From: a virus
Lineage: Duplodnaviria > Caudoviricetes
Direction: 5' to 3' (one strand)
Length of the DNA: 53,395 bases
IMG/VR virus record: IMGVR_UViG_3300029267_003268
Location: 1 to 53,395 of that record
Part shown: in pieces, positions 10,260 through 30,197 of the stretch
Layout: every line of letters begins with the position of its first letter
Position numbering within the stretch: position 1 is the first letter of the stretch
Made by a program: the position numbers and the translations under genes
Notes under the pieces: generated by a model
Database searches by the model: none
Told to the model about the DNA's origin: nothing
The model's input: the letters and a program-made list of their open reading frames with translations, nothing else

Positions 10260-13166
10260 ATGAAGAAACGCATCTTCTTTGCGGTACTGCTGGCGATGCT
10301 GTGGGGCGCTCCGCGCGCCCCGGCGGCTATGACCAACAGTGCCAGCAATATTGTCAGTCCTGACTACGTCTCGTTCATCGGCTCGATGAGTACGACGTTG
10401 GACCCGGTCTATCTGTTCGGTAACGAGGTCGAGGGTTTGCTGGAGGGCACCAGTGCCTTCGGCAATCTGCTCGATACGGATTCCTATATCCAGTTTGCCG
10501 AGATGAGCGCTCCGGGCAGTCCGGCGGCCAATCACGGCCGCCTCTACGTCGCCGACGACAGCGGGACTACCACCCTCTACTTCAAGGACTCCAGCGGCAC
10601 CGTGTCGAGTTGCATTTCCGGCTCCGGCACGTTCACCGGCGGTGCAATCAGCAGCGACGTGACCCTGGCGAACGGGGTGGACATCTACAGCTCCACAACC
10701 GCCGCCCATACCAGCAGCATCGGCGTGCGTCGTGATTCTGCCTACGTAGACGCTTTTCGCTGGACGAACCACGACACCACGCCGGCCCTGGTCCTGGGGT
10801 CTGCGACAACCTCGTTAGCCGTCACTTCAACGGGCCTGAACGTTACGACCGCCGGCGCCGTTACGGGCGTAACCGATCTGACGGCGACCGGGACGCAGAC
10901 GATCAACGCCAGCGGCTCGGACGCCACCAATATCGGCACCGGGTCCTATTCCGGTACGGTAACGCTCGGCAACAACTCCGCCAGTGTCGCCGTCGGCTCC
11001 TCGGCCTGGGACATTAGTAGCGACGGGGCCATGAGCGGCTTTTCCAGCCTCGGCCTGTCCGGTGATATTACGATGGCCCACGGCAAAGGCGTTAAATCCT
11101 CGACGACCACCGCTCAGAGCGTGGGCGTCTACGGGTACGACGTCGGCGCCGGCTACGTGGGGGCCCTGGTCGTTACCAATTCCGCTACTCCGGCCACCGT
11201 CTTGGGCAATACCAGTGGCACTACGGCCATTTCGTCCAGCGATTGGACGGTGAGCACCGCCGGCAACGCGGCCGGGCTCGGTACGATCACCTCGGACGGG
11301 CTCTTTACCTGTACCGGCGGCGAGACGATGACGGGAACGGTGTCGATCAACGACAGCGCGACCACGTCCACCACCAGTATCGGGGGCGGTACGACCACGG
11401 GCACCATTACCATCGGTGGCACCGGGACGCAAGCCGTGGACATCGGCAATGGGGCCGGCATCAAAACCGTGGCCCTCGGCAGCAGTACCACGTCGAGTAC
11501 GACCACGATCAAGGGCGGCTCCAACGGCGTCAACGTCAACGTCTCGGCCGACGACCCCACCAATATCAATACGGGCACCTCGACCGGCACGGTGACAATC
11601 GGCGGCACCGGCGCACTGGCCATTGCCATCGGCGACGGCGGGACCGGGGCCAAGACGATTACCCTGGGCGACGGCGCGGGGGCTGGCTCGACGACCATCA
11701 AGGCCGGAACGGGCAACCTCGACCTATCCGCCGTCGATGACGTTTCACTCAACGGCGGCTCCGCCGGCTCTATTATCGCCATCGGCACCAACACCCACGG
11801 CAACGTCCTGAATATCGCTACGGATGACACCGCGCTCGACGACATCAACATTGGTAGCGCCAAGGACACTCCCACGATTCTCGGCTCGGCCATTGTTATC
11901 ACGGCCGGGACGGACAATCTGGCCATGAGTGCGACCGATGACGTGAGCTTGAACGGCGGGTCCGCCGGTTCAATCCTGAACCTGATGACCAATACCCACG
12001 GCAACGTCCTGAATATCGCTACGGACGACACCGCGCTGGATGACATCAACATCGGCAGTGCTAAGGATACGCCGACGATTCTCGGTGCGACCATCGTCGT
12101 GACCGCCGGGGACGGCGATCTTACAATGAGTTCGAACGACGACGTCACGCTCAACGGGGGTAGCGCCGGCTCGATTATCAATATCGGGACGAACACCCAC
12201 GGCAACGCGATCAACGTCGGCACCAACAACACGACCGCCGATACCATTGCCGTCGGCAGTGCCAAGGACACCGTTACCGTCGATGGTATCTCCACCACTA
12301 TTGGTTCGACGGGCACGACCTCGGCGACCATCATCCAGTCGGGCACGTCCGACCTCGACATCAACGCCGGGGCCGCCCTGGACATCGACGCGGCGACAAC
12401 TCTCGATATCCTGGCCGGGGGCGCCTTCTCCATCGACGGCTCCAACGCCGCCAGTAACATCTCCCTGGCGACGAACGGCGACAGCGACGACTTCACCATC
12501 GGTCTGACCGGCGCCACCAATTCCAGCATCCTACTCAACAGCACGGGTACGGGCACCGATGCGATTGGGCTGACGGCCGGGGCTGGGGGCATTACCGCGA
12601 GCGCTGCGACCGGGGCCGTCGCCCTGTCCGGTCTCACCGGCAATACCATCACGGCTACCGCCGTCGCCGACGGCGCCAAGGGCACGACGCTGTCCGGCTC
12701 CATCGCCGGGGCGACCGCCTCCGAAGGCGTCGGGGCGTACGTCGAGGGCAATATCACCGGCAATACGGACGGGAAGGTCTATGCCTTCGGTTCCTGGCTC
12801 AACGTCACTGCCGGTACGCCGACCGACGGGAGCGACGCCATCCTCGCCGGAGCGGACGTCGGTATCTACGCCGCCGCCGCGCCGGAACTGGTGAACTGCA
12901 AGCTGCGCGTCTTGAACCTGGAGTATCAGGTCCACGCGGACGCCGGGCCGATCGACGACACCACGTCGATGATCCACTTCAACGCCGATTCCGGCGGGGA
13001 CGTGCCCGACTACCTGTTCACGTTCGGCAATGCGGACGCCGCTGTATACACGGCCAATACGACGCATACAGCGGCCAATACCGATAAGATCGGCGCCATC
13101 AAGATCAGCATTACTGGCACCGCCGAGAACGCTTACCTCTACGTTTATAGCCATGCCGGACAGTAA
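10260..13166 (+). CDS. Large Gly/Thr/Ser-rich beta-repeat fibre/adhesin-like protein with signal peptide
   Basis: MKKRIFFAVLLAMLWGAPRAPAA; ~67-aa internal repeats (NTHGN). Confidence 0.7.
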   Translation: MKKRIFFAVLLAMLWGAPRAPAAMTNSASNIVSPDYVSFIGSMSTTLDPVYLFGNEVEGLLEGTSAFGNLLDTDSYIQFAEMSAPGSPAANHGRLYVADDSGTTTLYFKDSSGTVSSCISGSGTFTGGAISSDVTLANGVDIYSSTTAAHTSSIGVRRDSAYVDAFRWTNHDTTPALVLGSATTSLAVTSTGLNVTTAGAVTGVTDLTATGTQTINASGSDATNIGTGSYSGTVTLGNNSASVAVGSSAWDISSDGAMSGFSSLGLSGDITMAHGKGVKSSTTTAQSVGVYGYDVGAGYVGALVVTNSATPATVLGNTSGTTAISSSDWTVSTAGNAAGLGTITSDGLFTCTGGETMTGTVSINDSATTSTTSIGGGTTTGTITIGGTGTQAVDIGNGAGIKTVALGSSTTSSTTTIKGGSNGVNVNVSADDPTNINTGTSTGTVTIGGTGALAIAIGDGGTGAKTITLGDGAGAGSTTIKAGTGNLDLSAVDDVSLNGGSAGSIIAIGTNTHGNVLNIATDDTALDDINIGSAKDTPTILGSAIVITAGTDNLAMSATDDVSLNGGSAGSILNLMTNTHGNVLNIATDDTALDDINIGSAKDTPTILGATIVVTAGDGDLTMSSNDDVTLNGGSAGSIINIGTNTHGNAINVGTNNTTADTIAVGSAKDTVTVDGISTTIGSTGTTSATIIQSGTSDLDINAGAALDIDAATTLDILAGGAFSIDGSNAASNISLATNGDSDDFTIGLTGATNSSILLNSTGTGTDAIGLTAGAGGITASAATGAVALSGLTGNTITATAVADGAKGTTLSGSIAGATASEGVGAYVEGNITGNTDGKVYAFGSWLNVTAGTPTDGSDAILAGADVGIYAAAAPELVNCKLRVLNLEYQVHADAGPIDDTTSMIHFNADSGGDVPDYLFTFGNADAAVYTANTTHTAANTDKIGAIKISITGTAENAYLYVYSHAGQ

Positions 13167-13178
13167 GGAGCTTGTGTA

Positions 13179-13442
13179 ATGCGAAAGATTGCTACGTTGA
13201 TAGGGGTCATCTTCTTGTCGGGCTGCACGATGACGCTGCACTCCAATGACCCCATGCAAGAGGCCCTGCGCGCTACGAAGGCGCGCATCAGTCAGATGAA
13301 GGTGATTAAGACCGAAGAGCAACTGACACACGACATCCTCCAACTGCGCCGAGACAATGCCCGGCTCAAGCTGGAGATGCAGGCCCCTCCGGTCATCGAA
13401 GGGCAGTTCATCCCGACGGAAGAGCTGCCGGAACAGAAATAG
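13179..13442 (+). CDS. Putative lipoprotein with coiled coil
   Basis: Lipobox LSGC after hydrophobic stretch. Confidence 0.6.
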   Translation: MRKIATLIGVIFLSGCTMTLHSNDPMQEALRATKARISQMKVIKTEEQLTHDILQLRRDNARLKLEMQAPPVIEGQFIPTEELPEQK

Positions 13443-13518
13443 GTTGTTTTTCCGGTGCAGTCCGGGCGGGTCATCCTGTCTCCGCCCGTCTCGGACTGCG
13501 CCCTTTAGGATTGGACTC

Positions 13519-13884
13519 ATGCTGACAGAACACAAACTAACGCTGACGACCAACAGCGGCGGAATCGCCACAGGGTACTTCCCTTCCGTCTCCGGCTATA
13601 TCGTGCGGATGCGCTACGTCAAAGTGGACTTCGCCGACGGTGTGGATTTCACTATCACTTTGAATACTGCCGGGGAAACCGTCTGGACGCAACTCACCCA
13701 GAACGCCTCTGCCATAAAGTATCCGCGTATCGGTCTTCACAGTAACGCCGGCGTGGCCCTGCTCTTTGAGGGCGCCAACACGCAAACCGACCGTATCCCC
13801 TTGCACAACGATAAGGTCAAGGTGGCCGTGGCCGAGGGCGGAAGCGGTAAGAGTGGAGACTTCTACCTGCTCGTAGAGGAGTAA
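13519..13884 (+). CDS. Hypothetical virion protein
   Basis: AGGA RBS, beta-rich, in structural operon. Confidence 0.6.
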   Translation: MLTEHKLTLTTNSGGIATGYFPSVSGYIVRMRYVKVDFADGVDFTITLNTAGETVWTQLTQNASAIKYPRIGLHSNAGVALLFEGANTQTDRIPLHNDKVKVAVAEGGSGKSGDFYLLVEE

Positions 13885-13888
13885 TCTG

Positions 13889-14911
13889 ATGCAGTGCGTG
13901 ATTCCGGATCAAGCCAATACGGTCTACGCCACCGTTATCGCGCGGGCCGACCACAGTCCCATTACCACCGGGGATGTGTACTTCTACCTGCGCTGCACCG
14001 CCGGGGACCAGGCGGGCAAATACTGGATCGCCTCGACATCGGCCTGGAGTTCGACCAAGGGCTCGGCGGGGACCGCTACGCACGTTGACGACGGTCTGTA
14101 CTCGCTGTCCATCGCCGCCGGGGCCTGGCCCGATTACGAGAGCGAATGGCGCTTGAGCTGGGAGGAGAGCGGCGACCTGCACAAGCCCGAATCCGACCAG
14201 GTCATCCCACGCGCTTCGGGCGTGCTGTCGCTGGTAAGCTACGGGGCGTACGAGACGGAGATTGCCAATATGGCCCTGGCCATGCTGGGCGGGGCGACGG
14301 ACGCGTCGCAATCGGCGATTTCCGATATCAGCGATGGGGGCAACCCGACGGCCGTTTGGTGCGAGAGGCTCTTTCGCACCGCGACGGAACATGCCTTACT
14401 GGACCTGCGCCCGCCGGAAGCGGTCAAGTACGACGAGATTACCGCACTGTCATCCTACGACGATTTCCCCGGCAACGAGGACGCCGAACTGTACGTCTAC
14501 AACATTCCTTCCGATTGCGTGGCGATCATTGCGGTCGTGGACCGCGATCTGCGGACCTCGGACAACGGAATTGATCCGGAAGAAACGGAATACTGGTACA
14601 ACGAGGCGGGCGACCAGTTCGTTACCGATCAGGAGGCTGCCGACGTCTACCTCAAGTACGTGCGGCGGATCGGCGACGCCAGCAAGTTCTCCCACGGCCT
14701 CAAGCTGGTGATTGCCGGCTACTTGGCGTTCCTATTGGCCGGGGCGATGGGCAAAACGAAGTTCCGGTTAGAGCTATTGAAGCTCTACGATTTCCAACTG
14801 GGCCAGGCCCGCCGGTATACGGGTCAGCGGAAACGCAAACGGATCACCCCGCAACCGTGGATCGATATTGCCGCGTCCGGCGACGCGAAGCCTACAGTGG
14901 AGCTACCGTAA
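13889..14911 (+). CDS. Tail adaptor / tubular protein A (T7 gp11-like) with N-terminal extra domain
   Basis: TEIANMALAMLG, YNIPSDC, LKYVRRI..F motifs begin about residue 120. Confidence 0.75.
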   Translation: MQCVIPDQANTVYATVIARADHSPITTGDVYFYLRCTAGDQAGKYWIASTSAWSSTKGSAGTATHVDDGLYSLSIAAGAWPDYESEWRLSWEESGDLHKPESDQVIPRASGVLSLVSYGAYETEIANMALAMLGGATDASQSAISDISDGGNPTAVWCERLFRTATEHALLDLRPPEAVKYDEITALSSYDDFPGNEDAELYVYNIPSDCVAIIAVVDRDLRTSDNGIDPEETEYWYNEAGDQFVTDQEAADVYLKYVRRIGDASKFSHGLKLVIAGYLAFLLAGAMGKTKFRLELLKLYDFQLGQARRYTGQRKRKRITPQPWIDIAASGDAKPTVELP

Positions 14912-15117
14912 TGGCCTTTTTGAGTTTGGTGCAGAGTTTGATGAGGGGCAGTATCCAGTCCCCGGAGATGCCCGGTTACGGGTCCGCCGAGATTCTCGCC
15001 GCCCAGGAACGACGCAAGCGGCGCATGGGCCGGCAGACGACGCGGAGCAGTCTCAATATTACCGGCGGCCTGTTCGGTCCGGCGTCGGTGGGCAACGGAA
15101 AGATGCTGGGACTATGA
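14911..15117 (+). CDS. Small basic virion-module protein
   Basis: TAATG coupling; RRKRRMGRQTT...GKMLG resembles small podoviral proteins. Confidence 0.55.
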   Translation: MAFLSLVQSLMRGSIQSPEMPGYGSAEILAAQERRKRRMGRQTTRSSLNITGGLFGPASVGNGKMLGL

Positions 15118-17816
15118 AAACAATCGTTATCATTCTCTGCCTGGCCGCGACGGCGGCGGGCAGTACCTTGAGCGTGCCGCACACGGGCTTTGTCGGCGGG
15201 GAACTGTCCCCGTTGCTGCACGGACGCTTCGATCTGCCGCAGTATCGCACCGGCTGTCAGACGTTGGAGAATATGTTGGTGGTCGGGACCGGCGCGGCGA
15301 CGCGGCGGCCGGGCAGTGTCTACGTTGCCGGCGCGCGGGGTACGGCGGCGGCGCGCCTGATGCCCTTCATTTACTCGGAGACGGACGCCTATATCCTCGA
15401 GTTCACCAATCTGAAACTGCGCTTCTATCGCAGCGGCGCCCAGATTGTGAGCGGGGACAGCGCCTATGAGATTGCCACCGTATTCACAACCGCCGATCTG
15501 TTCGAGATCCAGGCGTACCAGTTCGCCGACGTCATGTACCTGGTACAGGAGGATCACCCGCCGCAGAAGCTCACACGTGCCGGGCATTCATCCTGGACCA
15601 TTGCCGACGTGGACTTTACCGACGGGCCGTTCTTAGACGAGGACGAAACGGGCACGACGATGACCGCCAGTAACATTAGCGGCTCTATCACCATTACCGC
15701 CAGCGCCGATACGTTCGCAGCGACCGACGTCGGCCGCTTGATCGCCCTCCAGGTGCTTATGGACTCGCGTCTCACCGGCTGGGGCAATGTGAGAGAATGG
15801 CGGGAGGAAGTAGCCTGGCCGTACAGCGAATTGACGACGTGGAAGGCGTACCGCGAAACGGCCGTCTTCGACGAGAGCGGAGATGTCAGTAAGCCGATCA
15901 TGTTGGGGGAAGGCCAGGGGTTCGCCGTTACCGCCCAGTCCACGACGTTCAAAGGGCAAGTCACCTTGCAGGTCTTACTGGACTTCGATAGCGACGATTA
16001 CACCTCACCCTATACGTGGGCCGCCGGCGAGATCGAATCGGATTATACGACGGAAACGACAACGGCAACGTCCTGGAACCTCGAATACAGCGACGTCGCA
16101 AGCTGGGGCGAAAACGTACTGATCCGTCTGGCCTGTACCGACTACACGTCCGGCACTTTGAGAGTGACGATGGAGCGGCAGGAGGCGTCGTATCCGGGCA
16201 TGGCCGAGATTACCGCCTATACGAGCGCCAAGGTAGTCTCGGCAACGGTCAAGGACGAACTGCCCGCGACGGATTACGACTCCAATTGGAAGTGTATCAC
16301 GAAATACTGGCGACTGGGGGCCTGGGGCAGTGCGGTAGGCTATCCGACGTCGGTCACAATGCACTCCGGACGCATGGTCTACGCCAAGGATCTCGATCTG
16401 TACTTCACCTCTGTCGAGAACCTGGAGAGCTTCCGGCCGGGTATGGAGGACGACGACGCCTTCTGGTACACAATGAGCGAGTCCCGCCAGGACTACATCC
16501 AATGGCTGCTCGGCGACCATCGCAATACGCTACTGGCGGGGACCTTGAGCAAGGTCTACGAGATCGGGCAGGCGTACCAGCCGACGGCCCCGCCGGTCGT
16601 GCAATCGGCCTACGCGCAGAGCTGCATGGCCCATGTGCCGGTGCAGGCGTCCAATATGTTCCTCGGCCTGGACCGGACGGGTACGCACGTCTTCGAGTGC
16701 TTCTACAACGATACCCAACGCGCCTATATCGGGGCCGATCTGACGCAGTTGGCCGAGCACGTTCTGGAAGACGGCGTCGTGCAAATGGCCTTTCAGGAGA
16801 CGCCCTATCCGACCCTTTGGTGCGTGTGCGGTAACGGCGAACTGGCGACCATGTACTACCGGCCGGAGTACGAGATTGTCGCCTGGTCTCGGCAAGTGAC
16901 CGACGGCGACTATACCTCGGTAGCCGTTATCCCCCAGGCCAGCGGGCCCGACCAGGTCTGGACGGTGGTCAATCGCGAGATCGACGGCACCGATACGTAC
17001 ATGGTCGAATACTTCGACGATCTGGATCTGGACGCCGACATTTCCGACTGTTACTACGTGGACTCCGGTACGACCTTCGACGGCGGGGCGGCGGTCGATA
17101 TCAGTGGGATTACCCAGGCCGACCCCGGCGTAGTGACCGTATCGTCCTGGCCTTCCGGCCTGAACGACGGGGACAACGTCTACATTACGTCCGTCTCGGG
17201 CATGACGGAGATCAACAATCGTATCTTCACTGTGGACGATGCGACGGAAGGGTCCAAGACCTTCAGTCTCGACAGTACGGGCGATGCCGATTGGGATACC
17301 AGCGGCTACACCGCCTACACGTCGGGCGGGACCGTACAGATCGTAGAGAACACGTTCAGCCTGTCGCACCTGGAGGGCGAATCCGTCACTGTCTATACCA
17401 ACGACGGCGTAATGAGTGACGAGCTGGTCGCGAGTGGCTCGGTAACGGCCGATGACTACGCCAACCAGACGGCCGTCGGCTTGCCCTTTACCTCCATCCT
17501 GGCCCCGGAGCCCTCGGACCTCACGTTCTATACCGGCACGACGATGAGTCGGTCCAAGAAGATTACCGGCCTGTACCTGAACGTGTATTGCTCGATGGGC
17601 GGGTCGTTCGGCGTCAATAGTGACAATCTCTACGAAATCGACTGGTCCAACACCCGTTCGGGCCTGGCCTGGACCAGCGGGACGGAACTTGTTACCGATT
17701 CGGTCGTTTTGCCCCCGTTCGGCGGCTGGCGGCGCGAGGCGGAATATCGCCTGGTGGTGGATGAGCCGTGGCCCTTTACCGTGCGCGTGCTCGCACCCAT
17801 ATACGAGGTGGAATGA
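15114..17816 (+). CDS. Tail nozzle / tubular protein B (T7 gp12-like) with signal-peptide-like N-terminus
   Basis: FVGGELSPLLHGRFDL, GAATRRPGS, RLMPF, QFADVMY, GYPTSV, AWSRQ; inserted domain ITQADPGVVT...GMTEINN. Confidence 0.88.
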   Translation: MKTIVIILCLAATAAGSTLSVPHTGFVGGELSPLLHGRFDLPQYRTGCQTLENMLVVGTGAATRRPGSVYVAGARGTAAARLMPFIYSETDAYILEFTNLKLRFYRSGAQIVSGDSAYEIATVFTTADLFEIQAYQFADVMYLVQEDHPPQKLTRAGHSSWTIADVDFTDGPFLDEDETGTTMTASNISGSITITASADTFAATDVGRLIALQVLMDSRLTGWGNVREWREEVAWPYSELTTWKAYRETAVFDESGDVSKPIMLGEGQGFAVTAQSTTFKGQVTLQVLLDFDSDDYTSPYTWAAGEIESDYTTETTTATSWNLEYSDVASWGENVLIRLACTDYTSGTLRVTMERQEASYPGMAEITAYTSAKVVSATVKDELPATDYDSNWKCITKYWRLGAWGSAVGYPTSVTMHSGRMVYAKDLDLYFTSVENLESFRPGMEDDDAFWYTMSESRQDYIQWLLGDHRNTLLAGTLSKVYEIGQAYQPTAPPVVQSAYAQSCMAHVPVQASNMFLGLDRTGTHVFECFYNDTQRAYIGADLTQLAEHVLEDGVVQMAFQETPYPTLWCVCGNGELATMYYRPEYEIVAWSRQVTDGDYTSVAVIPQASGPDQVWTVVNREIDGTDTYMVEYFDDLDLDADISDCYYVDSGTTFDGGAAVDISGITQADPGVVTVSSWPSGLNDGDNVYITSVSGMTEINNRIFTVDDATEGSKTFSLDSTGDADWDTSGYTAYTSGGTVQIVENTFSLSHLEGESVTVYTNDGVMSDELVASGSVTADDYANQTAVGLPFTSILAPEPSDLTFYTGTTMSRSKKITGLYLNVYCSMGGSFGVNSDNLYEIDWSNTRSGLAWTSGTELVTDSVVLPPFGGWRREAEYRLVVDEPWPFTVRVLAPIYEVE

Positions 17817-18278
17817 ATGAATCCAGCAATGATAGCAATGTTGATGCAGGTCGGCGGCAAGGGACTCGAAGGGTACGCCGCCAAGCGCTCGCATGACGCC
17901 GCCGCGTCCGATGCCAAGGCGCACGCGGCATCGTACTGGGCTCGGGCCAGGGAGACGGCCCAACGGGCGGCCTACGAATCGTGGCGCACCTCGCTCGGGA
18001 TCAACCGTGCGATGGGCTCGATCACGAACGAACTGGCACGCAGCGGCGTGGAGATGCGCGGCAGCGCTACCGATTTGCTTCGTACCAGCCTGCGGGAAAT
18101 GACGCTGGACAAACTTATGACCTGGCGGGATCGCAAGACGCAGGTCAACGCAGACCGTATCCGTGCCTATTACGCCAAGAAGCAAGCGAAGAGCGCTAAG
18201 AAGCAGGGCAGATTGGCGATGGTGGCTGGCGGTATCAGCGCCGGTCACAGTATCGCAAGTTCAGACGTATTCGAGTAG
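17817..18278 (+). CDS. Internal virion (ejection) protein, small
   Basis: Ala-rich, ARSGVEMRGSA motif, position after nozzle. Confidence 0.65.
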   Translation: MNPAMIAMLMQVGGKGLEGYAAKRSHDAAASDAKAHAASYWARARETAQRAAYESWRTSLGINRAMGSITNELARSGVEMRGSATDLLRTSLREMTLDKLMTWRDRKTQVNADRIRAYYAKKQAKSAKKQGRLAMVAGGISAGHSIASSDVFE

Positions 18279-18283
18279 AGCCG

Positions 18284-19831
18284 ATGCCGATTTACATACC
18301 ATATTCCAAGAGAGTGCCTCAAGGCAGTCAAGCCGTGCCGCCGCCGTCGGGTTCAGGTCGAGTGTGGCGCGGCGTGGCCGATATGGGGGCCGCGATTGCG
18401 GCGCTGGGGGCCGACTGGCAGAAACGGCTCGAGCGGGAGAAGGACGAGCGCGACGGCCAGAAGCTCAGTGATACCAAGGTTGCGACCCATGTTGCAATGG
18501 CGACATGGATGCGTGATCGCCTGAACGACCCGGAACTCACGAACGAGGATTTTGAGTGGGGCGCCGGGCAGTATGGAATCGCCCACGACCAGACGGTCCA
18601 GAAGGCAATGGAACAGTTGCCGGAATCGGTACGGGACGAATTCATGTCGTACAGCGATCAGATGCGCGAGAAAAATCTCTATGCCTATACCACCAATTTG
18701 CAGGCCGTCGAGCGTGGTTATCGCCAGGACCAGTCTCGTCAGCAGATTCTCTCCCTGTGTCATACGCACGATGAGGAGGGCCTCAAGGAGGCGATTGCAC
18801 ATAACTTGAAGTGGTGGCCGAAAGACGAGCAGGCCGAGTTCCTGGATTGGGCCAAGTCCGAGTTCCTTTACAAGTTGGCGGAGAAGGACCCGGATATGGC
18901 ACTCGCCTCCCTAACGCCCGATATGTTCTCAACGGCGGGCCTGGCCGATAGGGTGCGCAAGGTGATTGCCGACGCCGAAGACGCGCAGGAGAAAGAGGCC
19001 GAGCGGGAGAGAAAGCAAGCGGTCCTCGATGCGGGCCGGCAAGCCTATGCCGATATGGTTACGTACCGCACGAGCGGGGGCGAGCAGGGACAGATGCACT
19101 CCATCGTTGATTTGGCGCAACTCTACGCCGCCGGCGGCATTGGCAAGGAGGCCTACGATGCCTGTATGTCGGTCTGGGAAGATAAGGCCAAACCCGGTAT
19201 CAGTAAACGCCGGCAAGCCTACGACCGAATCAGTACCGCCCTGGACCACTACCGGCGCGGCGATATCTCCGAGGACGAGTACGAGAAAATCCGCCTGCGC
19301 GAGAGCCCGTACCTCGATGATACCGACGCCAAATACTTCATTCGCCAGCGGGGGGACGTTTACGATAAGGCCGTTGCCGACCTGCGGCGTACGGCCATTG
19401 CCGACGCGACCAAAATCTTGGCGCAAGCCCCGCCAGACAATACCTACGAACCGTTCCCCGTGGAGCAGCAGATTGCCATGCGCGGCGAAGTGGGACGGCG
19501 TATGGACGTCTGGGTCGAGCGAAACTTCACCAAGGACAAGCCTATCGACCGGGCGGCGTACGAGCGGGAAGTCCGGGCCACTATCCTGGAAGTGCGCGAG
19601 ACGTGGGACGCGGAGCCCGAAGAGGAGGCCCCGGCGGAGCCGAAAACAGATGCGGAAACGATACCCACCGGGTTCGAGAAGATCTGGCCCCGACTCAGCG
19701 ACAAACAGAAACAGACGGTGCGCCGTTACAGCGACGCCGAGCGAAAGGCGTTCTTGGAAGAACTCAATAAGAAGCCTGTGCCGTTAGGCATGGATATGAA
19801 CGAGGTACCGACGACGAGCTTCATGCGATAG
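18284..19831 (+). CDS. Internal virion (ejection) protein
   Basis: MPIYIPY start, helical, synteny. Confidence 0.6.
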   Translation: MPIYIPYSKRVPQGSQAVPPPSGSGRVWRGVADMGAAIAALGADWQKRLEREKDERDGQKLSDTKVATHVAMATWMRDRLNDPELTNEDFEWGAGQYGIAHDQTVQKAMEQLPESVRDEFMSYSDQMREKNLYAYTTNLQAVERGYRQDQSRQQILSLCHTHDEEGLKEAIAHNLKWWPKDEQAEFLDWAKSEFLYKLAEKDPDMALASLTPDMFSTAGLADRVRKVIADAEDAQEKEAERERKQAVLDAGRQAYADMVTYRTSGGEQGQMHSIVDLAQLYAAGGIGKEAYDACMSVWEDKAKPGISKRRQAYDRISTALDHYRRGDISEDEYEKIRLRESPYLDDTDAKYFIRQRGDVYDKAVADLRRTAIADATKILAQAPPDNTYEPFPVEQQIAMRGEVGRRMDVWVERNFTKDKPIDRAAYEREVRATILEVRETWDAEPEEEAPAEPKTDAETIPTGFEKIWPRLSDKQKQTVRRYSDAERKAFLEELNKKPVPLGMDMNEVPTTSFMR

Positions 19832-19834
19832 GAC

Positions 19835-22800
19835 ATGGCGACCTTTACGACCAAACAGATTGACGATGCCTTCGCCGCCGCCGATACGGTCAACAGCGAT
19901 ATCGAGCGAGCGTTCACCGCCGCCGACGCAGCCCAGCCGAAGAAGCGACGGACGCAGTTTGGGTTCGGGGCGATGGGTCCGCGCGTCGAGCCGTTGCCGA
20001 CGAAGACCCGCAGCGAAGTGGCCGCCGACATGGTGAAGGATCACGACCAGACGGGCCTGAGCTATCCGGATCTGTTCGGCATCTACGATCAGGCCGGCTC
20101 GCAGAGCGATAAGGCTGCCGCCCTGGACCAGCTCATTCTGCGCCGTCAGTATCGCGGCGTCCTGGACGAAATCGGGATGGGACTGGAATCGGGGGCCGCC
20201 AATGTGGAGGGCAGCGCCGCAGGGACGCTCGGCAGCGCACTGCGCCGCGTGGCCCGGTCGCCGTTGTTCTACGGCCTCACGCGGTTTGGTCCGTTCAACT
20301 ATGATGCCGCAAAGGTGGAGCGGGTCGGGGCGGCGTGGGACGATTACGCCCAGCAGCTCTACGACTATTCCAGTTCGCCGCTCTTTCAGCCTGGCAAAGG
20401 GGCCGGGGCCGGGGGCTGGCTGGCCAATACCGTCGCGAAAACGGCGCCCATGATGGGTCTGGCGACCGGGGCGACCTTGGCGACCGGCGGGGCGGCCGGG
20501 GGCTTTCTCGTCGGGGCCGTGGTGGAGGGCGATAACGCCTACCGCGAAGCCCTGGCCGACGGCGCGTCCGAGGAAGAGGCGCAGATGGCCCGCTACGTCG
20601 TGGGAACGGTCAACGGCGTGATTGAAGTAGCGCAGGTCGGCCACATTATGAAGCTGGGCAAGGGCGCTTCCAAGGCGGTTGCCAAGGAGTTCGCCGGCGA
20701 GGCCAGCGATCGCGCCTTGAAGAAGATTGCCCGCGTGGTCGGCAAGCTCGGGAAACAGCATATTGAAGCCTCGATCAAGGAGGGACTCGAAGAAGTGGCC
20801 CAGGAATGGGTCGGGGCCGGGGCCGCAACGATCATCTACGATAAAGATATCGACGTTGAGGACATGATAACACGGCGCTCCCCGACGGCCTTCGCCGGGG
20901 GGGCCGGGGCGGGGTTCTTCTTAGGCGGCGGGTCGCTGGTCTTCAACGCCGCCACAGAGATCGCCGAGGCGACGACCCCGGCTCAGGCAGAGCCCGAAAT
21001 CCCGCAGATGCCGATGGTCGCTACAAAGGAGACGTACGATGCGGCCGTAGCCGAACGGGAGAAAGCGGTCGCCGCACAGCAAGCCGAGACCAAACCCGAA
21101 GCCAAACCGACCGAAGAAAAACAGACCCCGCCCCCGGCCACACCCACCGAGCCGACCGTTGAGGCAAAAGCGCCGGGGGAGGCGGGGCCTGGGGAATGGA
21201 CAGAGGAAATAAGCCCTAAGACGGGCGACATCACCAAGAGAATCCGAGGAGTAGTCCCAAAAGGAGAAGAAGGCGAAGGGGGGGCGATAGAGGTTACGCT
21301 AACATTCAACAAAGACGGAAGTCTGCGCTGGGTTACGGCGAACCACCCCGGAACTCATAATTTTGAATCACAAGTCCAGTTAGACATCGGATTTTTCCCA
21401 GACGGGGCTGGAGGCTTTCGCGCACTTACGGTCCACGATGACCCGTCTTTGGTTCTGCCGCGAATAGACGATATTATCACCCCGGCGACGCAAGAAACAA
21501 TGCCGGGCGCGGCGGGGCCTGGGGAAGCCACTACCGAAAAGGAGGCCGAACATGCCGAGCGTATCCCAGAAACAGGCGAACTTCATGCGGATGTGCATGA
21601 GCAGCGCCGGGCGCAAGAAGGCCAAGAAGAAGTGCCCGCCGAAGAAGGTGGCGAGGCATTACGTACAGGCCGACCGACGACTGAATCGGTGGGGGCTGTA
21701 GAGGCCCGCGAGCCGTGGGAGATGACGAGGGAGGAATATGCCCCACCGCCTCCCGCAGGTGTTTCAGAAGAGGCTCGCCACAAGGGCATGTTGGATGTCT
21801 CCGCTGTACGGGCAGGCTACGCCGCTGTATTGCGAGGTTTGGAGCCCGCCCGGTTGGTGATTGAAAAACATGGCCGTGCGCCCTATGCGGAAGTGATTAA
21901 GGCTATGCACCGGCCGGAGGCCGAAACGCTGGAATTCAACGACGCCCGCCTGGACGCCGTCGATGCGACCGTAAGTGAATTTGAGAAGGAACTGCAAAAG
22001 TACCCGGACAACGTTCTCGAAATGGTGATGCTCTCGCGCGGTCACGGGCTTGAAGGCAAGGCGCGGGCGCTGCAACGAGAAGCCTTTGCCAAAATGCCGA
22101 AGGCGCTAAAGGACTCGAAGATTCGCCGCGCGCTGGACGAAATCGCCGATGACAATTATCGCTACCTCCAGGAAGTCGCCGGGAAGGATGTAGGTAAGGT
22201 CGAAGACTACTTCTACGGCATCTACAAGGGCGGACGCAAAGTCAGTGCTTTCCTCAAACACTGGCGGACCACCGATCGTTATACCAAGCGCAAGAGCTTT
22301 CCCACCTACGCCGACGCCAAAGCCTTCGGGCTGGAAGCGCGAACGAAGAACCCCGTAGAGAATCTGCGGAGGGAGTTTCAGGCGATTGCGCGCCGGACCG
22401 CCATGCAGCAGTTGCACGATTACATGATGGCCGAGGGCAAGGGTATCTATATTGAAGAAACAGACAAGGCGCCTGCCGATTGGGACTTTATCGGGGACCC
22501 GTTGCGACCGGAGCCGGCCTTTGTCGACGCGCGCGTTGAACCGACAATGGCCGCGCTTATCAACAGCCTGATTTCTACCAATAAGATTACGCAGAACAAA
22601 GCCCTGAACGTGATGCGCAAGGTGAACAATGCCCTGCGCAGTTTGAAGTTCATCGGCAGCGCGTTTCACGCCTGGCAGATTGCCAAGCAATCTATCGCTG
22701 ATACCGGCTTCTTGGGTTTCTACAAAGGGACGTCGCGCACGGGCTTCAAGGCACTCTTTACCAACATGACGAAAGACCCCGCGCTGCGTCCTGCGTACCG

Positions 22801-24211
22801 GGACTATATTGAGCACGGCGGCGGCCATCAATACTCTATTGAGTCCGAGGCCCAGCGCGCCGTCAAGAGCATGATGCACGAACTCGACGCAGGGTCCAGG
22901 GTAATCCTCAAAGGCGTAGCGGCGCCGTTTAAGGTGCCCGTTGGTTTTGTGAACTGGATGTTCGAGCAGTACATCCCGGCTGTGAAGTTCGGTAAGTACC
23001 TTGATTCTGTGGGCGAAGCGGTCGGAAAGCAGGGCCGGGAGCTTACCTCGGTAGAGAAGATTGAGCTTATCAAAGAACAGCAGAATTTCTATGGCATGAT
23101 GAACGAACGCCTCTTTGGCCGTAGCGGAACGGTAACGACCGCCTTACGGTTTATCTTCATGGCGCCGGGATACGCGGAGGGCAACTATCGTACGATGTTC
23201 AAGGCCGCCACCCAATGGGGACGCGGGGCTGAGGGTTACAGCGCCGGGCGGTCCCGACGCAATATCGTCAATTCGTGGGTAGTGACTGGGACGCTTGCTA
23301 CCATTGGGACGATAATCCTGACTGGCAAGCCGCCTGAGAAACCGGAGGATCTGGATGATGTACGAGACCTATTGAAGATCGATACTGGCAAGAGAGACCA
23401 ACACGGCGACCGGATTATGATCGATCTGGCCAGCTACGATAAAGATTACTGGAACGTGGCCTTCAATACCCTGCGCGGTCGGCCGGACAAAGCGGTTACG
23501 GAATCACTCAAGCGGATTGGCGGTATGAAGGCGACCAGCTTTGAGATGCTTCACGATGCACAATCGCTGTTTCTGGGCAAGGCGATCTACGATTGGAAGG
23601 GCGACATGGTTTATCGTCCGACCGACCCGTTCGTAGAGAAAATGGCCGAACTGTTTGCACATGAGTTACGCAGGCTGGTCCCTATTTCCGTAAGCGTATT
23701 CAGTCAGAGTCGAAACAAGGGCCTGGATGATTCAGTCGCCGCAATGGAAGCGTTGATTGGATTGCGACCGACCTATGATGAGGATACCTTGAGCAAACGT
23801 GCCGCTATGCGAGACTGCTGGGACCTTCGCGAGAAGCGCGAAGCATTGGCGTGGCGATTGGATCAGTACAAAGATCCCTGGGGGGCAATAGAGTATTACA
23901 ATGAGCAGGTGAAACGGGTGCTCAAGCCCGACTTTGTGCCGAACGATATGCGGCAAGAATGGGAGAAAAAGCTACTTATTGATCCGGTTAGGGTCCTCAA
24001 TTGGAAGCATTTCCCGCCTCATGCAATGACGCTTGCGCAATTACGCAAGGCTATCGCGTCGCACATATATAAGAAACCGTACACTCGCAGTGACGGGCGA
24101 CGCTATCCTGCGGGGCACCCTCATACGGGTTATGAAGATCGGGTGGCGACGTTGCGAGCTGAACTGCAAAAACGTTCTGCCTCTACGCAAGGGACAAGGA
24201 GTACGCGATGA
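19835..24211 (+). CDS. Large internal virion / DNA-ejection protein
   Basis: 1458 aa, Gly/Ala hydrophobic segments, EGLEEVAQE motif, synteny. Confidence 0.7.
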   Translation: MATFTTKQIDDAFAAADTVNSDIERAFTAADAAQPKKRRTQFGFGAMGPRVEPLPTKTRSEVAADMVKDHDQTGLSYPDLFGIYDQAGSQSDKAAALDQLILRRQYRGVLDEIGMGLESGAANVEGSAAGTLGSALRRVARSPLFYGLTRFGPFNYDAAKVERVGAAWDDYAQQLYDYSSSPLFQPGKGAGAGGWLANTVAKTAPMMGLATGATLATGGAAGGFLVGAVVEGDNAYREALADGASEEEAQMARYVVGTVNGVIEVAQVGHIMKLGKGASKAVAKEFAGEASDRALKKIARVVGKLGKQHIEASIKEGLEEVAQEWVGAGAATIIYDKDIDVEDMITRRSPTAFAGGAGAGFFLGGGSLVFNAATEIAEATTPAQAEPEIPQMPMVATKETYDAAVAEREKAVAAQQAETKPEAKPTEEKQTPPPATPTEPTVEAKAPGEAGPGEWTEEISPKTGDITKRIRGVVPKGEEGEGGAIEVTLTFNKDGSLRWVTANHPGTHNFESQVQLDIGFFPDGAGGFRALTVHDDPSLVLPRIDDIITPATQETMPGAAGPGEATTEKEAEHAERIPETGELHADVHEQRRAQEGQEEVPAEEGGEALRTGRPTTESVGAVEAREPWEMTREEYAPPPPAGVSEEARHKGMLDVSAVRAGYAAVLRGLEPARLVIEKHGRAPYAEVIKAMHRPEAETLEFNDARLDAVDATVSEFEKELQKYPDNVLEMVMLSRGHGLEGKARALQREAFAKMPKALKDSKIRRALDEIADDNYRYLQEVAGKDVGKVEDYFYGIYKGGRKVSAFLKHWRTTDRYTKRKSFPTYADAKAFGLEARTKNPVENLRREFQAIARRTAMQQLHDYMMAEGKGIYIEETDKAPADWDFIGDPLRPEPAFVDARVEPTMAALINSLISTNKITQNKALNVMRKVNNALRSLKFIGSAFHAWQIAKQSIADTGFLGFYKGTSRTGFKALFTNMTKDPALRPAYRDYIEHGGGHQYSIESEAQRAVKSMMHELDAGSRVILKGVAAPFKVPVGFVNWMFEQYIPAVKFGKYLDSVGEAVGKQGRELTSVEKIELIKEQQNFYGMMNERLFGRSGTVTTALRFIFMAPGYAEGNYRTMFKAATQWGRGAEGYSAGRSRRNIVNSWVVTGTLATIGTIILTGKPPEKPEDLDDVRDLLKIDTGKRDQHGDRIMIDLASYDKDYWNVAFNTLRGRPDKAVTESLKRIGGMKATSFEMLHDAQSLFLGKAIYDWKGDMVYRPTDPFVEKMAELFAHELRRLVPISVSVFSQSRNKGLDDSVAAMEALIGLRPTYDEDTLSKRAAMRDCWDLREKREALAWRLDQYKDPWGAIEYYNEQVKRVLKPDFVPNDMRQEWEKKLLIDPVRVLNWKHFPPHAMTLAQLRKAIASHIYKKPYTRSDGRRYPAGHPHTGYEDRVATLRAELQKRSASTQGTRSTR
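21552..21701 (+). CDS. Nested small basic protein in +1 frame (49 aa)
   Basis: AAGGAGG RBS before ATG; MPSVSQKQANFMRM...KKVARHYVQAD. Confidence 0.5.
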   Translation: MPSVSQKQANFMRMCMSSAGRKKAKKKCPPKKVARHYVQADRRLNRWGL

Positions 24212-27200
24212 AAACGATTGTACTGGCGTTACTACTGACGGCGGCGGTGTGGGGGGCGGGGGTAGAGACTGTTTATGAACCCACAATTTATTCCTGCAAC
24301 GGCTCGACGAAGAGCTTCACCTTTTCCTGGGACATCTGGAATACGAGCGCTTCGACCCACGAGGACCTCGTCGTGATCCTGGTGGACTCCGACGGCGACC
24401 CGAGGACCCTGACGGAGAACTCCTCGGGCACCTACGGCTATTCCGTGGCCGCCACCAACAACGACTTCCGGGACGGGCCGGGCGGGACGGTGACGACCGT
24501 TACCGCGTTCGCCAGCGGCTACCAGATCGTCTTGCAGCGGGCCACGCCGCGCACGCAGACCAACAGCTACGGAACGCAGAGCGCCCCGACCGAACGGGAA
24601 GTGGGCAATTCCGTGGACCGACTGACGCTGATGGTCCAGGACCTCGCCGAGCAGGTCGGCCGGGCGCTGCGGGCGCCGGTAGTGGACTACGCCGAGGATA
24701 TGAACCTGCCCGCCGGGTTCGGCAGTGACGTCGGCTACACCTACTGGAACGGTTCGGCCTGGGTGCTGGCGACTACGGGCGTCGATATCGGGTCCCTCAG
24801 CGCCGCCTGGACCGACGTTACCGACGGCACGACCACGACGCTGGCGAACGGGCGCACCGTCCGCGACCAGTTGGGCCGGCCGTTCATCAATGTCAAGACG
24901 GACTACGACGCCGACGATACGGGGACGAGCGAGAGTAGTACGGAGATTCAGGCGGCGATAGATGCGGCGAACACCGCCGGCGGCGGTACCATCTATTTCC
25001 CGGAAGGCACGTACATCGCCGATGCGCTCACCTTGCAGAGCAATCTCACGCTACTCGGCGACGGGATTGGGGCCAGTACGATTAAGATGAAGGACTCGGC
25101 GACGGACGATTTGTTCACGGCGACCAGCGAAAACTATATCTCCGTGCGCGGCCTGACCTTCGATCTGAACGGGAGCAATCAGGGGAATCCGAGCAGTCCG
25201 GCGAGCAAACGAGGGCTCTACTTCAACACGAGCAATCACGTTCGCGTGCAGAATTGCCATTTCAAAGGCTTCTTTGAATATTACATCGATTGCTACACCG
25301 CCTCCGACATTTGGATTCAGGACTGCTACTTCACAGGCAGTGTTCCAGGTACGCCCACGGAATGGACTTCCGGCGACCTCCATTTTACAACGTGTAGTGA
25401 CGTACGAGTACAGAACTGCACGATGGACCACGCCACTCCCAGCGACGCCGACCACGCGATTATCGGGGTGTTTCTGAGTGGCGTGGTGCGCGGCCAAGTG
25501 ACGGGCAACCATTTCATCAACTGCGGGAAGGATACCGGCGGCGGGCATCAGGGCGCTGCCATCGACTTCTATCGAGACTGCGATGATGTGCACGTTCACA
25601 ACAACACCCTGGAGAGTTGCCAGTACATCGGCTGCCGCATCAGTCGTTCTACGAACATTTGGATCAGCGAATGCAGTATTGATACGAGCGATTCGGGGAC
25701 GCAGGAGGCCATCCAAATCTATGCCGACGCGACGACGGATACCGACCGTATCTGGGTGGTAGACTGCAATCTAATGACCAATGATGCCAGCGGCGAGTGC
25801 GTGCTGGTGAGCACCAATGATGCGGCCGGCGACGAGCCGAACGACATTCACATTATCGGCAATACCATGACCGGGCGGTACGGGGTCCATGTGGATACAG
25901 GCGGCTACGGTATCGAGGTCAAGGATAATGTCATCGAGACGACGTATCCCGCGATTCGGGTCGATGAAGGGGGCTCCGCCGCCGTGCTGTCCGGCGTAGT
26001 GGTTGCCGGCAACGTCTGTAGAATGCAGAACTGCGCCGACCAGTACGCCATTCAGGTGGACGGTGACGATGCGGTCGTCGCCAATAACCTGATCCTCGAC
26101 GCCTACAACGGTATCGCGCTGAAGGTCGCCAGCAACGGACTCGTCTGCGGCAATGTAATCGAAGCTTCGAACGACCATCTCCTCGTATACAACGAGACGC
26201 AGGACTGCGATGTGCATGGTAATAAGTATATCGGTGCGGGGACCGTGCTGTGGAATCAGGGGTCCGGCGTGATCGATACGGTCGTGTACGCCCGTGGGAA
26301 CAAGGCGGCGGCCGGGTCGGTGGTGATCGGCGAGGACTCCGACGACGGCACGAATACGCTCACGTTGCAGGCGCAGGCGATGACGGGGAATGTCACGCTC
26401 ACCCTGCCGGCCGACGATGGAGACAACGGGGAGGTCCTGACTACGAACGGTTCGGGCGTGACGAGCTGGTCGGCTGCCGGGGCGGGGGACATTACGGCGG
26501 TCGGCGACTCGGCCAGTGGGGCGGCCTTCACTGCCGATGGGACTGGCAACACCCTGCACTTCGAGGGGTCGAGCGCCGATGCCCACGAGACTATTATTCA
26601 GGGCTACGACGTGGCGGCAGATGTGACGTTCACCTTGCCGCCCGACGATGGAGATGCCGGAGAGCAGTTGCAGACCGATGGCTCGGGCAATCTGACATGG
26701 GAGGCCGCCGGCACGGTCTCCGTCGCTGACGACGAGAGCACAGACGACGGGCACGAGGTCGTGTTCACCACCGACAACACAAACCTGGAGTCCGACGGCA
26801 ATTTTACCTACAACCCGTCCAGCGGGACGGTTGCAGCTACCGAGTTCAGCGGCGGGGGCGGCAATCTGACCGGCGTGGATGCCGCAACGGGAGACAGCGC
26901 GACCGACTTCTTCGACGCCGGTGAAATCCCCGATGACCGGATCAGCGACACCCTGACGTCGAGTACCTGTACGGGCACCGCAGCCATAGCGACGGCGGTT
27001 ACGATTACCGACAATGAGAGTACGGCCGAGAACAATCCCCTGGTCTTTGTCCCGGACGGCGACTTGGACGGCGGCAATTTGGGTCTGGAATCGGATGGTA
27101 CGTGTTACTACACGCCGAGCACGGGCGTTATCACGACTACGGGCTTCGCCGGGGCCTTAACGGGCAATGTGACCGGCGATGTAACCGGCTCCTCCGGTAC

Positions 27201-28392: not shown

Positions 28393-28403
28393 GGAGATAT
28401 TTG

Positions 28404-28523: not shown

Positions 28524-28527
28524 TAAA

Positions 28528-29253
28528 ATGGCAACGATGAAACGCAAACTGTTTGGCTACGGCCTCGTCGTTGTGATTGTCGCAGCGGTTTTCTGGATGG
28601 TGACGACGATCTATGCCGCAACATTCGATGCCACGAAGTCGTATGGGCAACTCTTGGACTGGACAATGTTGGACCAGCGAGACGACACCCATACTGAGTA
28701 TGTGGATAGCGCCGTCTTGGATAGCGGCGAGTCGGCGGACTCCGCCCTGCGAATAGTTCTGCACATCGACATGGCCCACCAAGACGCCAATGCCGCCGGA
28801 GACCCCGCGTACGCCATCATTTTCGTCAAGAGCGGTGCGACCGATGAATGCTGGCATAAATTCCTCACGCTGGAGGCTACAGGCGGCACGGCCAACGCCG
28901 GAGACATCGACCGGGAAGCGGCGGCGGCTCAGAACGAAATCGGCCTGGCCAGCACCACGAATTTCGAGACGGGCGGCGATACGTATTTTGTCTTGGATGT
29001 TGGCGACATTACCGCGAGCTGTTTAGTCACGAATACGGGTGACTACGATAATGATGACGATATTGTAGTCATGGACAATCTCGTCAACACCTACGACGAC
29101 GCCGATTACCTCTATGACATCGTGGACCAGTGGTCCATACGCATCCCGGAGGCATTCCAGATAGTGAAGGTGTTGTTTACCAATACCGACGCCGATGCGA
29201 CCTACGCCGTGCGAGTCCATTACAACGTACTGACCGATGTGGATGATTCCTGA
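28528..29253 (+). CDS. Acidic hypothetical protein with N-terminal signal/TM
   Basis: AGGAG RBS; MKRKLFGYGLVVVIVAAVFWMVTTIYA. Confidence 0.7.
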   Translation: MATMKRKLFGYGLVVVIVAAVFWMVTTIYAATFDATKSYGQLLDWTMLDQRDDTHTEYVDSAVLDSGESADSALRIVLHIDMAHQDANAAGDPAYAIIFVKSGATDECWHKFLTLEATGGTANAGDIDREAAAAQNEIGLASTTNFETGGDTYFVLDVGDITASCLVTNTGDYDNDDDIVVMDNLVNTYDDADYLYDIVDQWSIRIPEAFQIVKVLFTNTDADATYAVRVHYNVLTDVDDS

Positions 29254-30197
29254 TGAAACGATTCTTGCTCATTCTATTGCTGTGCGGCGTGACCTACGCG
29301 CCGCAGAAACCCAAACCGATGTTGGGAGAGTTGATCGACCATTCGCATCCCCTGGCCCACGGTCTCGTTGGCTGCTGGCTGATGAATGAGGGGGCGGGGG
29401 GGACGGTCTATGATGTAAGCGGCAACGGGAATCATGGGACCTTGAAGAACGGCGCGGCGTGGTCGAGCGGATTGTACGGACCGGCCGTCGAGTTCGACGG
29501 CAGCGACGCGTACATTGATTGCGGTGTGTGCCCCGAGCGATTGAAATTTACCTCGTCCGATTTCACTATCGTCGCCTGGGTTAAACCAGACTCCGATCAG
29601 GCGGCGGTCATCTGTGGCAATGATATAAACACGGGGAACGGTGGCTGGTCGTTCTGGATATATACGAGTGGCTCTCTGCTGGTCTTTATGCAGGGCAGCA
29701 ATCAGACGTCCGACACGGGAGTGTGGACGGCCGGTGCGTGGAATCAGGTAGTCATCTCATTCGTCAACGGCACGAAAAAAGGCAATTGGTACGTCAACGG
29801 AATCTCGGCCGGTGGTGAGGACACGTTTGCGTACGCGCCGGAATATACGGCCGGCCGACACTTTGTCATTGGCGTCGATCCGAGGGATAATACTGGTACC
29901 GATCTCGATGGCCAACTGGATCATGTCACGGTATATTCGCGGATTCTGTCTCCCGCCGAGATTGCCAGTCTCTACACCGACTCGTTCCAGATGTTCGAGT
30001 CAACGCCGGCCTGGGCCCACTACAGCAGCGGCGAAGCGCCGTCCGGGGCGGCCCAGTTTATTGTGATTACCAGCCGCCTCGGCCCGTTGCCGATAATCCT
30101 GTTGATGACGGCGGCGCTGACCTTTGGCAAAGCGAGAAAACGAGGAGCGACGCATGGTGGAAATACTGGCACAAGCGGCAGAGCCGGCCGCCGGTAG
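29253..30197 (+). CDS. LamG/ConA-like lectin-domain protein
   Basis: GLVGCWLMNEGAG.TVYDVSGNGNHGTL, FTIVAWVK, GQLDHVTVYSRILS. Confidence 0.85.
   Translation: MKRFLLILLLCGVTYAPQKPKPMLGELIDHSHPLAHGLVGCWLMNEGAGGTVYDVSGNGNHGTLKNGAAWSSGLYGPAVEFDGSDAYIDCGVCPERLKFTSSDFTIVAWVKPDSDQAAVICGNDINTGNGGWSFWIYTSGSLLVFMQGSNQTSDTGVWTAGAWNQVVISFVNGTKKGNWYVNGISAGGEDTFAYAPEYTAGRHFVIGVDPRDNTGTDLDGQLDHVTVYSRILSPAEIASLYTDSFQMFESTPAWAHYSSGEAPSGAAQFIVITSRLGPLPIILLMTAALTFGKARKRGATHGGNTGTSGRAGRR

Follow-up and report, generated by a model that had tools for sequence, protein, structure and literature searches.

The assembly of tailed phages is, by textbook account, wholly cytoplasmic. Why, then, do core tail proteins of a podovirus-like phage begin with what appear to be secretion signals? 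The phage is known from IMG/VR record IMGVR_UViG_3300029267_003268, and the window analysed here is that whole record of 53,395 bases, a complete podovirus-like genome of 53.4 kb. The proteins in question are the tail nozzle (tail tubular protein B), the tail spike, a fibre-like protein of 968 amino acids (aa) and three smaller products of the same module. An initial annotation had reported leaders of the general secretory (Sec) type on all six and proposed that the distal tail is exported or tethered to the membrane, with the virion completed at the membrane, in the periplasm or at lysis. The leaders are genuine and sit on parts distal to the head-tail adaptor; export, cleavage and the joining of head and tail are what we infer from them. 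There is a somewhat better than even chance that the leaders are Sec-type signals cut by signal peptidase I (SPase I), or a lipoprotein signal in the case of the gene at 13179, and that the virion is assembled in two parts with the tail completed at or after lysis.

Leaders in the tail module

Leaders were called with a heuristic of our own that considers n-, h- and c-regions, except for two small open reading frames (ORFs), at 13519 and 14911, which were judged by eye. The heuristic was positive for six of the ten tail-module genes scored (10260, 13179, 15114, 24208, 28528 and 29253, named by their first base), which are the six that had been annotated, and for one of the 25 other window genes (41028). 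Neither small ORF has a leader. The portal, capsid, adaptor and ejection proteins were each negative, again as annotated. In related loci with a leaderless nozzle, 34 of 643 ORFs were positive, and at this background the probability of six or more positives among 12 genes is 1.5e-5; a Fisher test inside the window gives 0.002. A chance origin of the leaders was rejected on the comparison of a per-ORF rate of ~5% with six of ten tail-module genes.

All six leaders have a lysine or arginine before the hydrophobic core. Candidate cleavage sites with small residues at -3 and -1 were placed by the heuristic in the nozzle, the spike, the 968-aa protein and their relatives. The leader at 13179 consists of a basic n-region and a short hydrophobic stretch that ends in the annotated lipobox, L-S-G-C at residues 13-16; the lipobox consensus is [LVI][ASTVI][GAS]C. 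At 28528, the signal-like N-terminus that had been noted is present, but it does not appear to be a cleavable signal. Its uncharged stretch of ~26 residues exceeds the 7-15-residue core of the Sec/SPase I type and, for this reason, it is judged from sequence to be a probable signal anchor. The LamG-domain protein at 29253 also retains its annotated leader. Proline directly follows its best cleavage site, as it does in the nozzle homologue P0002, and its C-terminus has a hydrophobic stretch and a basic tail. It may be a type I membrane protein and not a component of the virion. A weak NCBIfam match of the same protein to the fimbrial family TafC lies far below the cut-off.

Two other kinds of signal were rejected. 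Export by the twin-arginine (Tat) pathway was dismissed as the R-R motif is missing ahead of the core in each of the six leaders. Signal-anchor-release (SAR) domains were dismissed as the leader-bearing proteins showed no muralytic domain in Pfam, PHROG and NCBIfam scans, and their short cores are followed by cleavage-type sites.

The start codons were considered next to the leaders that they would produce. An AAGGAG-like Shine-Dalgarno (SD) sequence lies 7-9 bases 5' of the leader ATG in 10260, 13179, 24208 and 28528. The ATG of the nozzle overlaps the stop codon of the preceding small ORF (ATGA) and its SD is weak; in-frame TTG and GTG codons occur directly behind the nozzle leader. The spike has no in-frame ATG, GTG or TTG between leader and anchor. 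The concern that true starts lie downstream of the leaders is answered by four strong SD sequences and by the uninterrupted spike. If translation did begin downstream, the leaders would be untranslated stretches of open hydrophobic sequence. Such an explanation can draw on the weak SD of the nozzle and on the fact that starts were assigned from sequence, and it would have to account for the SD sequences of the other genes, the 5% chance rate per ORF and the presence of one n-h-c layout across dozens of divergent homologues, whose leaders are unrelated and whose GC contents span 40-69%. It is considered very improbable. Each leader-bearing gene is present once in the window, so a second, leaderless gene copy was also rejected. 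As a separate observation, the nozzle and spike leaders begin with the identical five residues M-K-T-I-V, encoded with synonymous codon differences (15114-15128 and 24208-24222), which could reflect convergence or a copied leader.

Comparison with leaderless homologues

The nozzle leader precedes the conserved N-terminus F-x-G-G-E-x-S-P, and homology to known nozzles begins behind it. Residue 20 of the window nozzle corresponds to position 5 of the phrog_376 profile and residue 24 to residue 15 of PDB entry 8CK1 (E 6.7e-64), which is the nozzle of Cobetia phage Carin-1 (PMC13730344). The 30 listed matches to phage records, mostly of Pelagibacter phages, start at nozzle residues 19-26 with one at residue 115. 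For the spike, residue 27 corresponds to position 11 of phrog_1640, and residues 28-158 match BPP-1 Bbp9 with 36% identity (tblastn, E 1e-12), including the Y-x-C-N-G motif. The N-terminus of Bbp9 has 11 residues before the common motif and no hydrophobic stretch. As the initial annotation held for T7 and BPP-1, the cultured homologues (the Carin-1 nozzle, BPP-1 Bbp9 and those of Pelagibacter phages) are leaderless and align from behind the leader. Its description of the spike anchor as gp17-like was in error: the anchor is Bbp9-like and no Pfam T7-fibre family was matched. No cultured member of the clade was found when four of its members were searched by tblastn against 50,697 phage records; only leaderless relatives were returned and these aligned from the mature part.

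The length of the N-terminus separates the two kinds of nozzle. The conserved phenylalanine is preceded by a median of 26 residues in leader-bearing nozzles (range 20-30, n = 28) and by 10 in leaderless ones (3-10, n = 72), so that cutting ~16 residues would restore the usual nozzle N-terminus. The hydrophobic core has a median length of 11 residues (n = 28, from a crude parser with outliers of 1 and 19), and the n-region is basic in 23 of the 28. Judged on sequence, the leaders are genuine, translated, extra to the known proteins, conserved in the clade and of Sec/SPase I architecture. An AlphaFold2 model of the nozzle, calculated from an alignment of ten sequences, was poor (mean predicted local distance difference test score, pLDDT = 46.9). 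Residues 670-744 of the nozzle (17121-17345) form an inserted domain, common to many homologues, that matches Pfam E1_FCCH (E 2.2e-9).

The segment behind the predicted cut also differs. A lysine or arginine precedes the conserved phenylalanine in one of 28 leader-bearing nozzles and in 69 of 71 leaderless ones, counted over related rows, and the mean net charge of the pre-phenylalanine segment changes from +1.0 in leaderless to -0.1 in leader-bearing nozzles. Basic residues just behind a cleavage site block Sec translocation, and their loss is consistent with Sec export.

These features bear on the alternative that the leaders are not cut, but hold tail parts at the inner membrane, which would offer a surface for tail assembly, or stay in the virion as membrane-inserting peptides for use in infection. 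Long hydrophobic stretches in the product of 28528 and a few homologues would suit it, as would leaders that are rich in alanine, glycine and threonine or that have proline at +1; SAR domains are rich in the same three residues, and proline at +1 blocks SPase I. The median core of 11 residues, however, falls short of the length needed to cross a membrane. By the positive-inside rule, basic residues before the core would place the bulk of the protein outside rather than in the cytoplasm. Moreover, the start of the mature part is co-linear with leaderless homologues, in which the N-terminal motif is highly conserved, and an appendage of 16 residues could hardly be accommodated there. Uncleaved leaders are, on the whole, improbable, and leaders that are removed after export remain the preferred reading.

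Distribution of the nozzle leader

The survey of homologues that the initial annotation had called for found leaders in the nozzle, spike and 968-aa families. In a set of 5.8 billion proteins, a leader is present in 28 of the 120 best nozzle homologues and absent from 88, the other 4 being unclear or truncated. A script flagged 27 of the 28 and one was recognized by eye, as were the leaderless rows in which the script had missed the motif. The leader sequences of these homologues are unrelated to each other and share a common layout. Leaders were found in 14 of 80 IMG/VR nozzle loci, one of them with a TTG start, over a GC range of 40-69%. The N-terminus was readable in 50 metagenome loci, 3 of which have a leader. 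An exhaustive profile search returned 26,388 members of the nozzle family. Among the best 150 of its representatives, which stand for clusters at 50% identity, at least 53 are leader-bearing: the script placed 53 as leader-bearing and 58 as leaderless, with 39 unclassified, and about eleven of the unclassified or misclassed representatives are also leader-bearing by eye. Fusions to LamG or chitin-binding domains, and long extensions of the N-terminus, occur in some nozzle homologues.

A FastTree phylogeny was calculated without the leader columns. The leader trait needs 4-6 changes on its 105 rows, and none of 500 shuffles was as low. Leaderless rows P0014/15, P0020 and P0023 fall within the leader-bearing part of the tree.

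Leaders on the other distal tail proteins

Gene order is kept in the leader-bearing loci. The portal, scaffold and capsid genes are followed by a protein of ~160 aa and by at least one large and a small leader-bearing protein. A leaderless adaptor, a leader-bearing nozzle, leaderless internal proteins and a leader-bearing spike then follow. The adaptor orthologues in loci L199, L003, L007 and L005 are leaderless, as are the internal proteins of relatives, and the spike orthologues in L001, L005 and L198 are leader-bearing. Other ORFs were positive in 43 of 148 cases in leader-nozzle loci against 34 of 643 in leaderless ones (Fisher 9e-15, uncorrected for relatedness).

Homologues of the spike anchor were present in 31 loci. 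All three leader-nozzle loci have a leader on the spike, compared to 3 of the 28 others (L016, L017 and L024, each with a leaderless nozzle), and the spike of L059 is a fourth case among these others by eye. Spike leaders are therefore more widespread than nozzle leaders. In the 968-aa family, 75 of 91 homologues, the window's own included, are leader-positive and a conserved mature N-terminus lies directly behind the predicted cut. The leader that had been annotated on this "fibre" is thus well founded, but its identity as a fibre was a guess: the protein has no match in Pfam, PHROG or NCBIfam.

A proposed model of two-part assembly

On the basis of these comparisons, export and cleavage of the leader-bearing tail parts are likely, as far as can be judged from sequence. 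Translocation, cleavage, pre-assembly in the periplasm and late joining may be considered in terms of the following steps, all of which we infer. In one deep lineage of Carin-1/BPP-1-like podoviruses, all adaptor-distal tail parts would have gained export signals at their N-termini. The nozzle, the spike and the 968-aa fibre-like protein would be made in the cytoplasm, directed by their leaders through SecYEG and then relieved of them, while the product of 13179 would be lipidated. With a mature N-terminus co-linear with that of leaderless homologues, each protein would fold, and probably pre-assemble, in the periplasm. The portal, capsid, adaptor and ejection proteins would remain in the cytoplasm, the site of DNA packaging. 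Head and tail halves would meet only after the inner membrane is breached, and the tail would be completed at or after lysis. The fibre N-termini of T7-like tails are described as docking on adaptor and nozzle together (PMC10575957); it may be reasoned from this that an exported distal tail joins the heads only once the inner membrane is open. In its most specific form, the proposal has DNA-filled heads with portal and adaptor in the cytoplasm and a nozzle hexamer with spikes and fibres pre-assembled in the periplasm, the two being joined at lysis throughout a large uncultured clade of at least 53 clusters. This form is offered tentatively and may well not hold.

Several points weigh against two-part assembly. 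The DNA-filled heads of T7 and P22 need nozzle parts to hold their DNA. An exported nozzle cannot cap a filled head, and the pathway thus requires that DNA be retained until lysis; the conserved 68-aa ORF between the adaptor and nozzle genes could bear on this retention. In L198, the equivalent place is taken by a homologue of this ORF (38% identity over 47 aa). Among the window genes scanned, Pfam and PHROGs recognized no endolysin, holin or spanin. The cysteine content of 0.73% against 0.59% (p 0.03) has no parity effect and provides no clear periplasmic signature. The leader calls rest on our own heuristic, applied to sequence with a background of 5%, and the leader counts were taken over phylogenetically related rows. 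Finally, a few leaders have proline at +1 and 5 of the 28 nozzle leaders lack a basic n-region.

The difficulty of joining head and tail would be avoided if there were two pools of each protein. Exported molecules would then serve another purpose, such as a free depolymerase, the masking of receptors from within or superinfection exclusion, and virions would draw on molecules that evade export late in infection or on a leaderless isoform initiated at an internal start. Suitable codons exist in the nozzle genes, namely the TTG and GTG behind the window leader and, in L004, an in-frame ATG that lies seven codons ahead of the conserved phenylalanine. The loci with leaders on the spike only suggest that exporting receptor-binding proteins may be useful in itself. 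Against two pools, there is no in-frame start codon between leader and anchor of the window spike or behind the nozzle leaders of L035 and L073. Receptor masking leaves the leader on the nozzle, a core part of the channel, unaccounted for, and the loss of lysine and arginine from the early mature region shows selection for efficient nozzle export. Two pools are thus regarded as unlikely, and completion of the virion from an exported tail is retained as the preferred model.

Organization of the window

The late module of the window is of the podovirus type and lies on the + strand. Its features are collected in Table 1. The phage is probably temperate because a tRNA-Met gene (33281-33354) adjoins a tyrosine integrase gene (33443-34438).

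Table 1. Late-module features of the window with their coordinates and the basis of each assignment.
Feature	Position	Strand	Basis and remarks
Small terminase	window late module	+	phrog_606
Large terminase, 894 aa, with intein-like insert	1978-4662	+	weak LAGLIDADG_3 match, E 0.0012, below Pfam cut-off
Portal protein, no leader, cytoplasmic head part	5238-6995	+	PF12236 Head-tail_con, E 2.3e-39; heuristic negative
Scaffold-like gene	between portal and capsid	+	
106-aa protein, ~7 tandem P-V-E-A-E pentapeptides	8220-8540, between scaffold and capsid genes		
Major capsid protein, no leader	8720-9730	+	PF20911 GP7, E 6.9e-50; heuristic negative
968-aa Thr/Gly/Ser-rich repeat protein, ~22-residue leader, fibre-like	10260-13166	+	SD AAAGGAG; heuristic positive
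87-aa predicted lipoprotein, lipobox L-S-G-C at residues 13-16	13179-13442	+	SD TAAGGAG; heuristic lipobox flag
Head-tail adaptor, no leader	13889-14911	+	phrog_394 tail protein, E 7.2e-16; heuristic negative
68-aa ORF between adaptor and nozzle	14911-15117	+	stop overlaps nozzle ATG
Tail nozzle (tail tubular protein B), 16-residue leader at 15114-15161	15114-17816	+	phrog_376, E 2.2e-147
Three internal virion/ejection proteins (153, 515 and 1458 aa), no leaders	17817-24211	+	first is phrog_418; all heuristic negative
Tail spike, 1394 aa, 16-residue leader at 24208-24255, Bbp9-like anchor, pectate-lyase-like beta-helix	24208-28392	+	SD AAGGAG; phrog_1640 and phrog_2234; Pfam Beta_helix
241-aa protein, basic N-terminus and long hydrophobic stretch	28528-29253	+	SD CAGGAGA; heuristic positive, late site
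LamG-domain protein, N-terminal leader	29253-30197	+	Pfam Laminin_G_3, E 8.9e-24; heuristic positive

The 241-aa protein encoded at 28528 has no match in Pfam, PHROG or NCBIfam. Beyond the tail module, a 180-aa protein encoded amid the replication genes (41028-41570) is the seventh leader-bearing protein of the window; homologues with 29-33% identity occur twice on contig C247, from a Planctomycetota metagenome-assembled genome (MAG). In the early region, a 154-aa protein (34613-35077) starts with the twin-arginine-like motif R-R-R-D-L-L-K and a hydrophobic stretch, with the SD sequence AAAGGAG upstream, and has no family match, NCBIfam included. A 172-aa protein (1134-1652) contains one long hydrophobic span. 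An intein is also found in a helicase of the related contig C247.

Host association

The initial annotation considered a host with a large periplasm, such as a member of the Planctomycetota. In favor of this is one binned contig, the 83-kb C247 of Planctomycetota MAG G1664, the sole relative of this phage that is anchored in a genome. It shares with the window a leader-bearing homologue of the 968-aa protein, an integrase with 45% identity and three further genes. Two portal/capsid sets are present on C247 (L265, L283-L286), which appears to comprise two phage-like regions; one region is related to the window phage, and several large proteins of the contig are leader-bearing. As the contig shows only phage-like genes, its Planctomycetota label rests on binning. 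Against a general link to the phylum, the nozzle on another contig of the same MAG is leaderless, and so are all nozzles from the 11 Planctomycetota genomes, out of 401, in which one was matched.

Other phyla were covered by the same whole-genome profile searches with nozzle alignment A1. Verrucomicrobiota gave matches in 47 of 401 genomes; 30 loci were read and all 28 readable N-termini are leaderless, and eight of the loci read with their flanks contained no leader-bearing fibres. In a further FastTree phylogeny, the nozzles of Verrucomicrobiota are placed on the leader-bearing side, but the basal split has low support (59). One of 401 Bacteroidota genomes was matched, the seed genome itself, and its nozzle is leaderless. 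Two of 401 Acidobacteriota genomes were matched, the seed genome included, with leaderless nozzles where the N-terminus is readable. In the order of genome G1058, one of 64 genomes had a nozzle match. A nozzle pattern scan of genome contigs identified no loci with A2 and 55 with A3, all leaderless at their readable N-termini. In the mapping of leaders on host taxonomy that had been suggested, every readable N-terminus among the nozzles from genome searches was leaderless.

The tRNA-Met gene has an initiator-like anticodon stem and directly precedes the integrase gene, making it a possible phage attachment site (attP). Neither the whole tRNA-Met nor its 3' part has an exact match in 185,579 species genomes; G1664 matches it at 82% over 45 bases. 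A search of the Atlas with the integrase provided no useful taxa, and one homologue of the 968-aa protein is labelled Omnitrophota. Bacteroidota rarely use SD sequences, and SD usage in the window therefore argues against a Bacteroidota host. Altogether, there is a weak lead to the group of Planctomycetes, Verrucomicrobia and Chlamydiae (PVC) as hosts.

Significance and comparison with known systems

If the model is correct, a nozzle with a conserved export signal means that part of a tailed-phage virion matures in another compartment. This raises the questions of how DNA is retained in an untailed head and when head and tail meet. Possible gains include disulfides, glycosylation, the avoidance of premature assembly and the separation of sugar-cutting spikes from precursors in the cytoplasm. 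In annotation, the presence of a signal peptide is often taken to mark a phage protein as "non-structural" and not "structural", a rule that fails here. Even though the clade has no cultured member, simple export fusions in a laboratory strain would allow a direct test of the leader. The literature searches found no description of signal peptides on the nozzle or core tail parts of a tailed phage.

The closest comparison is with the podovirus nozzle, represented by phrog_376, Carin-1 gp44 (8CK1) and the "tail tube B" of Pelagibacter phages. The window nozzle is homologous over its full length (32-35% identity to Pelagibacter phages), has the same place after the adaptor and has the same conserved N-terminal motif. 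Known nozzles start 3-10 residues before the phenylalanine and have a basic residue there, whereas those of the window clade have ~16 extra residues in a signal-peptide arrangement and have lost the basic residue. The N-terminal anchor of the spike is related to that of Bbp9, including the Y-x-C-N-G motif, and to that of Pelagibacter-phage tail fibres. Unlike the leaderless Bbp9, it has a leader of 16 residues and a much longer beta-helix body.

The leaders of the window clade resemble the Sec/SPase I signals of diderm bacteria in their basic n-region, ~11-residue core and neutral or acidic early mature region, and may do so in the small residues that the heuristic places at -3/-1. In diderms, these signals sit on periplasmic proteins; here, it is the core parts of a tailed-phage virion that carry them. 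There are precedents for phage proteins that depend on the Sec system of the host in the virion proteins g3p and g8p of filamentous phages, which have signal peptides, and in the Sec-exported SAR endolysins. The window phage would differ from both, as filamentous phages assemble wholly at the membrane without a cytoplasmic head, and SAR domains are uncleaved and belong to enzymes that are not part of the virion.

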